NCBI RefSeq assembly: GCF_041886205.1
Contig: NZ_CP169029.1
Direction: 5' to 3' (one strand)
DNA length: 64,000 nucleotides
Source: Escherichia coli
GTDB taxonomy: Bacteria > Pseudomonadota > Gammaproteobacteria > Enterobacterales > Enterobacteriaceae
Both the position numbers and the translations under genes were made by a program. Each line of letters starts with the position of its first letter. Positions within the stretch are counted from its first letter, which is position 1. This document shows, piece by piece, positions 28,900 through 36,174 of this stretch. The notes under the pieces are model-generated. The model did no database searches. It was given only the letters and a program-made list of their open reading frames with translations, and was not told the origin of the DNA.

Positions 28900-31800
28900 A
28901 TGAAAAAGTTACGCGTAGCCGCCTGCATGCTAATGCTGGCGCTGGCAGGGTGCGACAACAACGATAACGCGCCAACAGCGGTGAAAAAAGATGCGCCTTC
29001 TGAAGTTACTAAAGCTGCCTCTTCAGAAAACGCGAGTTCAGCAAAACTCTCCGTGCCGGAGCGACAAAAACTGGCCCAACAGAGTGCCGGTAAGGTGCTG
29101 ACATTGCTGGATCTCTCTGAAGTCCAACTTGATGGTGCAGCCACGCTGGTGCTGACGTTCTCCATCCCTCTCGACCCGGATCAGGATTTCTCACGCGTTA
29201 TTCATGTCGTCGATAAAAAAAGCGGCAAAGTGGATGGTGCCTGGGAGCTGTCAGATAATCTTAAAGAGCTGCGTTTACGCCACCTCGAACCGAAACGTGA
29301 TTTGATCGTTACTATTGGCAAGGAGGTCAAAGCACTCAACAACACAACCTTCAGTAAAGATTACGAAAAAACTATAACTACCCGCGACATCCAACCCAGC
29401 GTCGGTTTTGCCAGCCGTGGTTCGCTGCTGCCTGGTAAAGTCGTTGAAGGGCTGCCGGTAATGGCGCTCAACGTTAATAATGTCGATGTTAACTTCTTCC
29501 GCGTTAAGCCAGAATCTCTGCCAGCATTCATTAGCCAATGGGAATACCGCAATTCGCTGGCGAACTGGCAGTCAGACAAACTGCTGCAGATGGCGGATCT
29601 GGTCTACACCGGACGGTTTGATCTCAATCCTGCGCGTAACACCCGTGAAAAATTATTGCTGCCGCTGGGCGATATCAAACCGCTTCAGCAGGCGGGCGTG
29701 TATCTGGCTGTGATGAATCAGGCTGGACGTTACGATTACAGTAATCCCGCGACGCTGTTTACGTTAAGTGATATCGGCGTTTCAGCTCACCGTTATCACA
29801 ATCGTCTGGATATCTTTACCCAAAGTCTGGAAAACGGCGCGGCCCAGCAAGGAATTGAAGTCTCTTTATTAAATGAGAAAGGGCAGATTCTGACTCAGGC
29901 AACCAGTGACGCTCAGGGGCATGTGCAGCTGGAAAATGATAAAAACGCCGCATTATTGCTGGCACGTAAAGACGGTCAGACAACGCTACTCGATTTAAAA
30001 CTTCCGGCGCTGGACTTAGCAGAATTTAACATTGCTGGCGCGCCAGGCTATAGCAAACAGTTTTTCATGTTTGGCCCGCGCGATCTTTATCGCCCAGGTG
30101 AAACGGTCATCCTCAATGGTTTGCTGCGTGATGCAGACGGTAAAGCGTTGCCCGATCAACCCATCAAGTTAGACGTGATTAAACCCGACGGGCAGGTACT
30201 CAGGAGCGTCGTTAGTCAGCCGGAGAATGGCCTCTACCACTTAACCTGGCCACTCGATAGCAATGCGGCAACCGGTATGTGGCATATTCGCGCTAACACG
30301 GGCGATAACCAGTATCGGATGTGGGATTTCCACGTCGAAGATTTTATGCCAGAGCGTATGGCGCTGAATCTGACCGGTGAGAAAACCCCGCTTACGCCGA
30401 ATGATGAAGTGAAATTCTCCGTGGTGGGATACTACCTGTACGGTGCGCCTGCTAATGGTAATACTTTGCAAGGGCAACTTTTCCTGCGCCCACTGCGTGA
30501 GGCTGTGTCAGCCTTACCTGGTTTTGAATTCGGCGATATAGCTGCTGAAAACCTTTCCCGCACTCTGGATGAAGTTCAGTTGACGCTGGATGATAAAGGG
30601 CGCGGCGAAGTTTCTACAGAAAGCCAGTGGAAGGAAACGCATTCCCCATTACAGGTTATTTTCCAGGGCAGTTTGCTGGAATCGGGCGGTCGCCCGGTGA
30701 CGCGCCGCGCTGAGCAGGCTATCTGGCCTGTCGATGCATTGCCGGGGATCCGTCCGCAGTTCGCCTCGAAATCGGTTTACGATTATCGTACTGACAGCAC
30801 GGTGAAACAGCCCATTGTTGATGAAGGCAGTAACGCCGCTTTTGACATCGTTTATAGCGATGCGCAAGGCGTGAAAAAAGCCGTGTCGGGCTTGCAGGTG
30901 CGCCTGATTCGCGAACGCCGCGATTACTACTGGAACTGGTCAGAAGATGAAGGCTGGCAGTCACAGTTTGATCAAAAAGATCTGATCGAAAATGAACAAA
31001 CTCTGGATCTTCAGGCGGATGAAACCGGTAAGGTCAGTTTCCCGGTAGAGTGGGGCGCTTATCGTCTGGAAGTCAAAGCGCCGAATGAAGCGGTCAGTAG
31101 CGTGCGTTTCTGGGCTGGCTATAGCTGGCAGGACAACAGCGACGGGAGCGGTACCGTGCGACCCGACCGTGTCACGCTGAAACTGGATAAAGCCAGTTAT
31201 CGCCCTGGCGATACCATTAAGTTGCATATTGCCGCGCCAACGGCGGGTAAAGGTTATGCGATGGTCGAATCCAGTGAAGGGCCGCTGTGGTGGCAAGAGA
31301 TTGATGTTCCGGCTCAAGGGTTGGATCTGACGATTCCGGTCGATAAAACCTGGAATCGTCATGATCTTTATTTGAGTACGCTGGTGGTGCGTCCTGGCGA
31401 TAAATCTCGCTCCGCGACGCCAAAACGCGCGGTTGGTGTGTTGCATCTGCCGCTTGGTGATGAAAACCGTCGCCTCGATCTGGCGCTGGAAACACCAGCA
31501 AAAATGCGTCCCAATCAACCATTAACCGTGAAAATTAAAGCCAGCACTAAAAATGGTGAGATGCCAAAACAGGTGAATGTGCTGGTGTCTGCCGTTGATA
31601 GTGGTGTGCTGAATATTACTGACTACGTCACGCCAGATCCGTGGCAGGCGTTCTTTGGTCAGAAACGCTATGGCGCAGACATTTACGATATTTACGGTCA
31701 GGTTATTGAAGGTCAGGGGCGTCTGGCAGCTCTGCGTTTCGGTGGCGATGGTGATGAGCTGAAACGTGGTGGTAAACCGCCGGTCAATCACGTCAATATT

Positions 31801-33861: not shown

Positions 33862-36174
33862 ATGCCTCGCTTGTTAACCAAACGCGGCTGCTGGATAACG
33901 CTGGCAGCTGCGCCATTTCTCCTTTTTCTTGCAGCGTGGGGAGCAGATAAACTCTGGCCTCTACCGCTGCATGAAGTCAATCCCGCACGAGTGGTCGTGG
34001 CGCAGGATGGTACGCCGCTCTGGCGCTTCGCCGATGCTGACGGCATCTGGCGTTATCCGGTAACAATCGAAGATGTTTCTCCACGTTACCTTGAAGCGCT
34101 GATCAATTATGAAGATCGCTGGTTCTGGAAGCATCCGGGGGTGAATCCATTCTCGGTGGCGCGCGCAGCATGGCAAGATCTCACTTCGGGACGGGTTATT
34201 TCCGGTGGCAGCACGCTCACTATGCAGGTTGCTCGTCTGCTTGATCCTCACCCCAAAACATTTGGCGGCAAAATTCGCCAGCTCTGGCGCGCGTTACAAC
34301 TGGAATGGCATCTGTCTAAGCGTGAAATTCTGACCTTGTATCTTAACCGCGCTCCGTTTGGCGGTACGTTGCAGGGGATCGGTGCGGCAAGTTGGGCTTA
34401 TCTCGGAAAGTCGCCTGCGAATTTAAGCTATTCCGAGGCGGCAATGCTGGCGGTTTTGCCGCAAGCGCCCAGCCGTCTTCGCCCGGATCGTTGGCCGGAG
34501 CGTGCCGAAGCCGCGCGTAATAAAGTGCTCGAACGGATGGCCGTGCAAGGTGTGTGGTCCCGTGAGCAGGTAAAAGAGTCAAGGGAAGAACCCATCTGGC
34601 TGGCACCCCGACAAATGCCGCAACTGGCACCGCTGTTTTCGCGCATGATGCTCGGTAAAAGCAAAAGCGACAAAATCGTTACTACGCTGGATGCCGGTCT
34701 TCAACGACGTCTGGAAGAACTGGCGCAAAACTGGAAAGGGCGGTTGCCACCGCGCAGCTCACTGGCGATGATCGTGGTTGATCATACAGATATGCGTGTT
34801 CGCGGCTGGGTGGGATCGGTTGATCACAACGATGATTCACGCTTTGGTCATGTTGATATGGTCAATGCGATCCGATCGCCAGGATCGGTGCTCAAACCGT
34901 TTGTTTATGGTCTGGCGCTGGATGAAGGCTTGATCCACCCGGCATCACTGCTGCAAGACGTCCCCCGGCGCACCGGTGATTATCGACCAGGTAACTTTGA
35001 TAGCGGTTTTCATGGCCCGATCAGCATGAGCGAGGCGCTGGTGCGCTCGCTGAACTTACCTGCTGTGCAGGTGCTGGAAGCTTATGGACCGAAACGGTTT
35101 GCGGCAAAGTTACGCAATGTTGGATTGCCGTTATATTTGCCCAACGGCGCTGCGCCGAATCTTTCACTCATTCTCGGCGGCGCTGGTGCAAAACTGGAAG
35201 ATATGGCGGCAGCGTATACCGCGTTTGCTCGCCACGGCAAGGCAGGCAAATTGCGCTTACAGCCTGACGATCCGCTGCTTGAACGGCCTTTAATGTCGTC
35301 GGGGGCGGCGTGGATCATTCGCCGGATTATGGCTGATGAAGCGCAACCCTTGCCGGATAGTGCCTTGCCACGCGTCGCCCCACTGGCATGGAAAACGGGC
35401 ACCAGCTATGGCTATCGTGACGCCTGGGCGATTGGGGTTAACGCTCGCTATGTCATTGGGATCTGGACTGGCAGACCTGACGGCACGCCCGTTGTTGGTC
35501 AGTTTGGCTTTGCCAGTGCCGTACCATTGTTGAATCAGGTCAATAATATCTTACTGTCGCGCAGTGCGAATCTGCCGGAAGACCCGCGCCCGAACTCAGT
35601 CACTCGTGGCGTTATCTGCTGGCCGGGCGGACAGTCTTTGCCGGAAGGTGACGGTAACTGTCGCCGCCGCCTGGCAACCTGGCTGCTGGACGGGAGTCAG
35701 CCGCCAACTCTATTACTGCCGGAGCAGGAAGGCATTAATGGCATTCGTTTCCCCATCTGGCTGGATGAAAATGGCAAACGTGTTGCCGCTGATTGCCCGC
35801 AAGCGCGACAAGAAATGATAAATGTCTGGCCGCTACCGCTGGAACCCTGGTTGCCCGCATCAGAACGTCGCGCTGTGCGCTTACCACCGGCCTCGACAAT
35901 TTGCCCGCCATACGGTCACGATGCCCAGCTCCCTCTGCAGCTGACAGGCGTTCGCGATGGCGCGATTATTAAACGTTTACCGGGCGCAGCGGAAGCGACT
36001 TTGCCGTTGCAATCAAGTGGAGGGGCAGGTGAACGCTGGTGGTTTCTGAATGGCGAACCGTTAACTGAACGCGGGCGCAACGTGACCCTGCATTTGACGG
36101 ATAAAGGTGATTATCAATTGCTGGTGATGGATGACGTAGGGCAAATCGCGTCAGTACATTTTTCATTTCAGTGA
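33862..36174 (+). CDS. pbpC: Penicillin-binding protein 1C (PbpC), glycosyltransferase/transpeptidase
   Basis: 770 aa; GT51 motifs (EDRWFWKHPGVN, GGSTLTMQ) and the transpeptidase KTGTS motif; start abuts the yfhM stop (operon). Confidence 0.9.
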   Translation: MPRLLTKRGCWITLAAAPFLLFLAAWGADKLWPLPLHEVNPARVVVAQDGTPLWRFADADGIWRYPVTIEDVSPRYLEALINYEDRWFWKHPGVNPFSVARAAWQDLTSGRVISGGSTLTMQVARLLDPHPKTFGGKIRQLWRALQLEWHLSKREILTLYLNRAPFGGTLQGIGAASWAYLGKSPANLSYSEAAMLAVLPQAPSRLRPDRWPERAEAARNKVLERMAVQGVWSREQVKESREEPIWLAPRQMPQLAPLFSRMMLGKSKSDKIVTTLDAGLQRRLEELAQNWKGRLPPRSSLAMIVVDHTDMRVRGWVGSVDHNDDSRFGHVDMVNAIRSPGSVLKPFVYGLALDEGLIHPASLLQDVPRRTGDYRPGNFDSGFHGPISMSEALVRSLNLPAVQVLEAYGPKRFAAKLRNVGLPLYLPNGAAPNLSLILGGAGAKLEDMAAAYTAFARHGKAGKLRLQPDDPLLERPLMSSGAAWIIRRIMADEAQPLPDSALPRVAPLAWKTGTSYGYRDAWAIGVNARYVIGIWTGRPDGTPVVGQFGFASAVPLLNQVNNILLSRSANLPEDPRPNSVTRGVICWPGGQSLPEGDGNCRRRLATWLLDGSQPPTLLLPEQEGINGIRFPIWLDENGKRVAADCPQARQEMINVWPLPLEPWLPASERRAVRLPPASTICPPYGHDAQLPLQLTGVRDGAIIKRLPGAAEATLPLQSSGGAGERWWFLNGEPLTERGRNVTLHLTDKGDYQLLVMDDVGQIASVHFSFQ

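Follow-up and report, generated by a model that had tools for sequence, protein, structure and literature searches.

The adjoining genes yfhM and pbpC, found in a 64,000-nucleotide stretch of Escherichia coli DNA (the window; assembly GCF_041886205.1, contig NZ_CP169029.1), very probably constitute the core yfhM-pbpC unit of this species, in which a thioester-based protease trap, the alpha-2-macroglobulin (A2M) homolog ECAM, would be co-transcribed and translationally coupled with the peptidoglycan synthase PBP1C. In a six-frame list of open reading frames (ORFs), yfhM occupies 28900..33861 (1653 aa, ATG start, TAA stop) and pbpC 33862..36174 (770 aa, ATG start), both on the plus strand, as are the features described below unless indicated otherwise. 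Pfam, PDB, NCBIfam and the RefSeq annotation agree on these identities, which a sequence-only reading of the stretch had proposed. The 7.8-kb stretch holding the pair is 100% identical to that of E. coli strain wlxctx60, where RefSeq names the genes yfhM and pbpC, and it is matched in 5425 of 5426 complete E. coli genomes, each time in single copy and on the chromosome. The surrounding gene order, which runs yph-hca-csiE-suhB-isc-pepB-sseB-sseA on one side and yfhM-pbpC-...-ndk-rlmN-rodZ-ispG-hisS-yfgM-bamB-der on the other, is that of an ordinary E. coli chromosome. The pair is intact, ordinary and already known, and it does not depart from published knowledge.

By every feature that can be tested in its sequence, YfhM is assigned to the type I (thioester-containing) bacterial A2Ms, predicted to be anchored in the inner membrane as periplasmic lipoproteins. 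Eleven Pfam families are recognized above their curated cut-offs, in the order bMG1, bMG2, bMG3, MG2, bMG5, bMG6, A2M_BRD, A2M, TED, CUB and bMG10, while no NCBIfam model matches the protein. Searches of the PDB return full-length matches to E. coli YfhM (4RTD, 4ZIQ and 5A42) at E = 0, values that speak for homology and not chance, and the Salmonella structure 4U48 is likewise recovered at E = 0. The translation opens with a signal peptide and lipobox, LALAG-C (28900..28953), reading MKKLRVAACMLMLALAG before the lipidated C18, whose codon lies at 28951-28953; together with the full set of macroglobulin (MG) domains, this bears out the earlier description of the protein as a lipoprotein A2M. 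The core of the bait region, residues 923-942 as delimited in the literature (PMC4498604), reads RLAALRFGGDGDELKRGGKP (31666..31725) and is identical to that of K-12. A single CLEQ is present, at residues 1187-1190 inside YPYGCLEQTASG; it forms part of the thioester site YPYGCLEQ (residues 1183-1190; 32446..32469), with the Cys1187-Gln1190 pair encoded at 32458-32469, and it stands at the same position as in K-12. The two ‘lock’ motifs of MG10, RDDR (1594-1597) and ESMY (1632-1635), are encoded within 33679..33804 and are both identical to those of K-12. The sequence-only reading had noted that CLEQ was retained, and alignment to K-12 agrees, with the supporting motifs intact as well.

Among known systems, the E. 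coli K-12/BL21 ECAM (4ZIQ, 5A42, 4RTD) is the product of the same locus. It has the same 1653 residues, is 98.8% identical and has identical functional motifs. The 20 substitutions that distinguish the window protein from it are scattered over MG1, MG3, MG4, MG5, MG6, MG8, TED, CUB (which holds five) and MG10; none falls in a known functional element, whether the bait stretch 923-942, YPYGCLEQ, RDDR or ESMY. The ratio of nonsynonymous to synonymous substitution rates (dN/dS) relative to K-12 is 0.12 for yfhM and, when the tail is left aside, 0.10 for pbpC, and these low values indicate purifying selection on both genes. From the 98.8% identity to K-12/BL21 ECAM we infer a reactive thioester in this allele.

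The ECAM trap itself has been demonstrated in the literature. ECAM possesses a functional thioester that is modified by methylamine and by proteases (PMC3328433). The methylamine test has already been performed (Doan and Gettins, 2008, as cited in PMC3328433), and since that work was done on a near-identical ECAM, repeating it with the present protein would add little. In elastase-cleaved ECAM the bait is disordered, and cleavage moves the C-terminal MG domain off the thioester domain (TED), exposing Cys1187-Gln1190 towards the protease; before activation, the thioester is shielded by RDDR and ESMY (of the ExMY type) of MG10; the tyrosines next to CLEQ, here in YPYG at 1183-1186, belong to the same set of motifs (PMC4498604). 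The ECAM monomer acts by tethering the protease covalently and hindering it sterically, an inhibition that is effective chiefly against large substrates (PMC12939704). Carried over to the window protein, this mechanism would begin with export of YfhM, its lipidation at Cys18 and its tethering to the periplasmic face of the inner membrane. An endopeptidase cutting the exposed bait (about residues 923-942) would cause the bait to displace the C-terminal MG10 from the thioester domain, whereupon the exposed Cys1187-Gln1190 thioester would react with a lysine of the attacking protease to form a covalent tether. The tethered protease would then be cut off from large substrates, in the manner of a monomeric ‘snap-trap’.

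Other members of the A2M family share parts of this design. The Salmonella enterica protein Sa-A2M (4U48, 4U4J, 4U59) is likewise a type I thioester lipoprotein whose gene is followed by pbpC after a 0-nt gap; it is about 82% identical to the window protein, has 1644 aa and carries CLEQ at residue 1179. The type II A2Ms, such as MagD of Pseudomonas and the YfaS class of E. coli, share the MG fold, the bait region and the periplasmic location, but they lack both the lipobox Cys and CXEQ and are encoded in a six-gene mag operon instead of beside pbpC, which places the window protein clearly in type I (PMC3735191; PMC5764988). More distantly, human alpha-2-macroglobulin and complement C3, which gave weak PDB matches, have in common with ECAM the MG ring, a bait-triggered rearrangement and a CXEQ thioester in an alpha-helical TED (PMC4498604). 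Human alpha-2-macroglobulin, however, is only about 12% identical and forms a tetrameric ‘Venus flytrap’ cage with CGEQ, whereas ECAM is a monomeric ‘snap-trap’ with CLEQ (PMC4498604; PMC12939704).

The predicted co-transcription of yfhM and pbpC with translational coupling is well supported by the arrangement of their junction. As the sequence-only reading had observed, the yfhM stop directly abuts the pbpC start: the TAA at 33859-33861 is followed without a gap by the ATG at 33862, and the junction (33859..33864), which reads AGA CCG TAA ATG CCT with its neighboring codons, is identical in K-12. No Shine-Dalgarno sequence precedes pbpC, whose best duplex with the 3' end of 16S rRNA is +0.4 kcal/mol, compared with a coding background of -2.4 +/- 2.2 and a value of -6.0 for yfhM. 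An independent pbpC mRNA would therefore be translated poorly and, lacking its own ribosome-binding site, pbpC is likely to be expressed by termination-reinitiation at TAA-ATG. In consensus scans, the interval 28855-34744 of the plus strand contains no sigma-70-like site, nor does the yfhM/pbpC junction contain a terminator-like one, although such scans argue only weakly, as their overall yields are at chance (17 promoter-like matches against 15.1 expected and 17 terminator-like matches against 17.5). Upstream, RefSeq places the end of sseA in the identical strain at 28693, leaving a divergent sseA/yfhM intergenic region of 206 bp (28694..28899), 100% identical to K-12, that is presumed to contain the yfhM-pbpC promoter. 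A sigma-70-like match, ATTACA-17-CATAAT, is found there at 28827-28855 (plus strand), but it is a consensus match in a region-wide count that is itself at chance. Taken with the spacing conserved in relatives, these features strongly favor co-expression of ECAM with PBP1C: pbpC would be carried on the same mRNA as yfhM, transcribed from the promoter region shared with the divergent sseA, and ribosomes finishing at the yfhM TAA would restart at the abutting pbpC ATG.

A different arrangement would have pbpC expressed mainly from a promoter of its own inside yfhM, making the two genes separate transcription units despite their abutting codons. Such a promoter is hinted at by a study using genomic systematic evolution of ligands by exponential enrichment (SELEX), which reported that the RpoE holoenzyme binds inside yfhM, in the interval from pbpC to sseA, at a peak classed as intragenic (K-12 W3110 coordinate 2649866; PMC5493296), and the consensus scans used here are blind to promoters not of the sigma-70 type. 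The peak may instead mark the sseA/yfhM promoter region, and the plus strand shows no sigma-70-like site anywhere in yfhM. A separate pbpC message would in addition suffer from the missing Shine-Dalgarno sequence, and the spacing of 0-1 nt is conserved in relatives. Separate transcription units are thus highly improbable, and the shared transcript is preferred. For its part, the RpoE (sigma-24) peak could reflect a promoter that serves the pair under envelope stress, or else an internal one.

The organization of the pair is preserved well beyond E. coli. The sample of relatives comprised 77 YfhM-related loci drawn from a collection of genomes at species level; wherever enough downstream DNA was available (69 loci), yfhM is followed by pbpC. 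The intervening gap, readable in 71 loci, is 0 nt in 29, 1 nt in 36 and 3-12 nt in 4; longer gaps occur only in Providencia and in one distant metagenome-assembled genome. A lipobox-like motif is present in each of the 74 loci that include the N-terminus, and CLEQ in 71 of the 72 readable relatives, the remaining one having CAEQ. The association also recurs among PbpC homologs of only 34-42% identity on unrelated contigs, where an A2M gene or an MG10 end lies directly upstream in five of six informative loci (the contigs of two further distant loci, P0126 and P0239, end at the gene). The gaps between A2M and pbpC in those five loci are -4, +14, +15, +19 and +158 nt; every readable thioester motif is still CLEQ or CAEQ. 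One distant pair, in L086 379-10391, encodes an A2M of 2487 aa with extra Big-type domains and a conserved CLEQ. The 158 nt that separate it from pbpC hold a long, near-perfect inverted repeat, GGGGGACAGGCACCTTTTGC...GCAAAAGGTGCCTGTCCCCC.

What the two proteins do for each other is less settled than their linkage. According to a hypothesis from the literature, PBP1C would add glycan-strand synthesis and repair peptidoglycan after a breach of the outer membrane while ECAM would neutralize proteases. This idea of defense and repair originated with Budd (2004), whom PMC4498604, PMC3328433 and PMC5764988 cite for it, and the functional cooperation of ECAM and PBP1C is still called a hypothesis in PMC4498604, PMC3328433, PMC5764988 and PMC7554673. 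The sequence-only reading was accordingly right to describe the pairing as known but mechanistically open. Alternatively, the two genes could be co-expressed for historical or regulatory reasons and their products work independently, ECAM as a stand-alone inhibitor and PBP1C as a spare glycosyltransferase. Neither an interaction between ECAM and PBP1C nor a joint phenotype is reported in PMC4498604, PMC3328433, PMC6131605, PMC7554673 or PMC5764988, and the phenotypes of PBP1C described so far concern LdtD-dependent labelling, not proteases (PMC6131605). Furthermore, one PbpC homolog with a Gln at the GT51 motif-3 position (P0259, described below), encoded in a complete genome, has no A2M neighbor. 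Independence nevertheless has to contend with an adjacency kept at 0-1 nt across the Enterobacteriaceae and recurring at 34-42% identity on unrelated contigs. A linkage this durable is difficult to account for unless joint expression has been selected for, and independent action therefore appears unlikely.

PbpC has the domain composition expected of PBP1C. An N-terminal membrane anchor is followed by the Pfam domains Transgly/GT51 (61-226), Transpeptidase (304-519) and BiPBP_C (687-767), all above their cut-offs, the last of these (PF06832) with 62 bits against a cut-off of 26.8. The protein also passes two NCBIfam equivalog models, NF008414 with 1564 bits (cut-off 1121) and TIGR02073 with 919 bits (cut-off 494). 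Compared with K-12, it is of equal length and differs by 8 substitutions, four of them in the C-terminal tail. GT51 motif 1, E84-DRWFWKHPG (of the EDxxFxxHxG type, with E84/D85), GT51 motif 2, GGSTLTMQ at 115-122 (of the GxSTxTxQ type), and the transpeptidase motifs SVLK at 342, SLN at 396 and KTG at 511 are invariant in 72 orthologs. The Glu of motif 1 is a key catalytic residue of GT51, equivalent to E233 of PBP1B (PMC4632607). The architecture of GT51 plus transpeptidase, the motif-1 Glu, SxxK, SxN and KTG are shared with E. coli PBP1A and PBP1B; PBP1C differs from these in its extra BiPBP_C domain, in a Gln at the position of the motif-3 Glu, and in its failure to replace PBP1A/1B (PMC7554673). 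No Lpo activator of PBP1C is known.

The Gln in question, Gln140, is encoded at 34279..34281. At the position of the RKxxE glutamate of GT51 motif 3, PbpC reads GKIRQ where alignment to Aquifex PBP1a (2OQO) gives RKIKE, and thus has Gln instead of Glu. The motif-3 Glu is the second active-site Glu of GT51, with a catalytic role established in work on PBP1b and on the Aquifex and Staphylococcus aureus enzymes. Gln140 is invariant in 72 of 72 enterobacterial PbpC orthologs, K-12 included, which marks it as a trait of this particular clade of PBP1C, as opposed to a fault in the present allele. The spread of the residue was assessed with a representative library, in which every full-length PbpC match of at least 41% identity has Gln at motif 3. 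The 141 diverse PbpC-like representatives that contain a GT domain have Gln (77), Glu (58), Asp (3) or another amino acid (2) at this position. A wider, word-indexed protein search yielded near-identical Citrobacter PbpC for all of its best 120 matches. The possibility that Gln versus Glu follows linkage to an A2M gene was rejected on both sides: an A2M gene or MG10 end directly precedes each of the Glu-type P0254, P0257, P0267 and P0194, while among Gln-type proteins P0146 is A2M-linked and P0259 stands alone. Because the Gln is independent of A2M linkage, any connection between Gln140 and ECAM is pure speculation. The substitution may be functionally neutral, or known to specialists; a narrow literature search, to which little weight attaches, found no publication on the motif-3 Gln of PBP1C. 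A further idea, that PBP1C is an intrinsically attenuated or differently gated polymerase that needs a specific condition or a partner to be active, would fit the substitution but is highly doubtful. Among the representatives, P0155, a full-length PbpC-like protein of 779 aa, has Arg in place of E84, and Thr and Ala in place of the SxxK Ser and Lys; with both active sites apparently degenerate, it is possibly a pseudo-enzyme.

No finding contradicts the identity of the two genes. Several points do weigh against reading the locus as a working trap coupled to a peptidoglycan synthase. An intact CLEQ alone is no proof that the thioester forms in this YfhM allele, and the intragenic RpoE SELEX peak within yfhM leaves room for an extra internal promoter. 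PBP1C has no known role in the laboratory and does not replace PBP1A plus PBP1B (PMC7554673); its sole reported phenotype arises on overproduction, together with LdtD (PMC6131605). Lastly, the Gln that replaces Glu in GT51 motif 3 may make PBP1C an atypical polymerase.

At the end of pbpC, the window departs from K-12. A context of 36175..41022 comprises an AT-rich spacer of 163 bp and a cluster of four genes, and is followed by the conserved region upstream of ndk. The genes encode the A subunit of a reductase of the DMSO/selenate family with a twin-arginine (Tat) signal (36338-38719), its B subunit (38716-39345), a DmsC-like anchor (39338-40159) and a 4Fe-4S protein (40159-41013). From about 36150 onwards, while still within the last ~25 nt of pbpC, the sequence differs from that of K-12, so that the left edge of the variable segment is the diverged 3' tail of this gene (36150..36174), encoding SVHFSFQ* here and TVKFVMQ* in K-12. 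The right edge lies at 41022/41023, again by comparison with K-12, which has an unrelated 18-nt filler in place of the 4.85 kb found here.

The sequence-only reading had described this segment as an accessory island inserted immediately downstream of the pair. Its accessory nature is confirmed, as the cluster is present in only 379 of 5426 E. coli genomes and the rest match no more than the last ~130 bp before ndk; the term ‘inserted’ fits only loosely, given an edge about 25 nt inside pbpC and the same slot being occupied across genera. The same four genes were found in the same pbpC-ndk slot in 13 related loci (L003, L014, L022, L025, L031, L032, L037, L038, L052, L063, L072, L077 and L078), which belong to S. 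enterica subsp. diarizonae, where the cluster follows pbpC as it does here, several Enterobacter, Lelliottia, Huaxiibacter, Pseudenterobacter, Pseudocitrobacter faecalis, Superficieibacter and an Escherichia cryptic clade. In all, at least eight other enterobacterial genera have the cluster in this slot, with a patchy distribution inside genera: some of the carriers have congeners without it. It is missing from E. albertii and E. whittamii and also from the outgroups Providencia, Mangrovibacter and Franconibacter. The tail of PbpC covaries with the cluster across genera, ending in F[TSVA][LM]Q* without it and in FEL..* or HFSF..* when the cluster is present.

Recent horizontal acquisition of the cluster by an E. 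coli lineage would account for the small share of E. coli genomes that carry it, for its absence from E. albertii and E. whittamii, and for the AT-rich spacer, with 45% G+C at 36001-37000 against 58% in the preceding interval. Its recurrence in one slot in 13 related loci, however, together with a PbpC tail type that goes with cluster presence across genera, speaks against this. The A and B subunits of relatives are 82-89% identical to those of the window, and thus diverge about as do the flanking YfhM and PbpC (76-83%); moreover, neither mobility genes nor flanking repeats were observed. Divergence is much greater for the C and 4Fe-4S genes, but their rapid evolution is common to all genus pairs; the Escherichia copy is therefore not exceptional, and for the same reason a mosaic cluster with foreign C and 4Fe-4S genes was rejected. 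Recent insertion is therefore improbable. Because the same cluster occupies the same pbpC-ndk slot across genera, the simplest reading is that of an old, two-haplotype presence/absence polymorphism with a constant location, inherited vertically and also transmitted by homologous exchange via the flanking sequences. An ancient single gain of the cluster is possible, the outgroups being without it.

The scan found no intrinsic terminator after pbpC, and the fold of 36140-36340 contains no G+C-rich hairpin with a U-run (z = -1.96). As there is no terminator between pbpC and the cluster, read-through from the yfhM promoter into the reductase genes is possible. An FNR-like palindrome, TTGATTGTTATCAG, is present at 36269-36282, one mismatch from the consensus and 56 nt upstream of the A start codon, and the N-terminus of the A subunit carries the twin-arginine signal SRRSFLQ (36338-36460). 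Together, these two elements suggest a separately regulated, anaerobic and periplasmic enzyme. As a signal in its own right the FNR-type site was set aside, four such matches in the window being within chance expectation (2.3 +/- 1.4). The start of the 4Fe-4S gene (40159) shares one base with the end of the anchor ORF and lacks a Shine-Dalgarno sequence (+0.7 kcal/mol); this gene is probably translationally coupled to the anchor gene.

Elsewhere in the window, Rfam matches at gathering scores identify ryfA (27350-27654, minus strand), the iscRS stability element (19984-20093, plus strand) and sroE (45332-45423, plus strand), all of them expected for this region of E. coli. RyfA is the RNA that encodes the small toxin TimP and is annotated between sseB and sseA. 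A second accessory stretch (50622-62000, plus strand) lies between der and xseA. It consists of sinH, an intimin-like inverse autotransporter gene (50622-52796), a SinI-family gene (52851-53828) and an 8-kb gene with adhesion domains (53949-62000), and coincides with a dip in G+C to 42-46% at 50001-52000.

For the biology of E. coli, the discovery value of the locus is small, as the pair is core to the species and both the thioester chemistry and the structures have been published. The value of the present check is a negative one: yfhM-pbpC is intact and ordinary in this strain, and two details of the previous account have been corrected. The question of whether ECAM and PBP1C cooperate is not made more tractable by this sequence. 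Were the doubtful view of PBP1C as an attenuated polymerase to prove true, it would help to explain why this enzyme does not replace PBP1A/1B and why it shows no phenotype in the laboratory.

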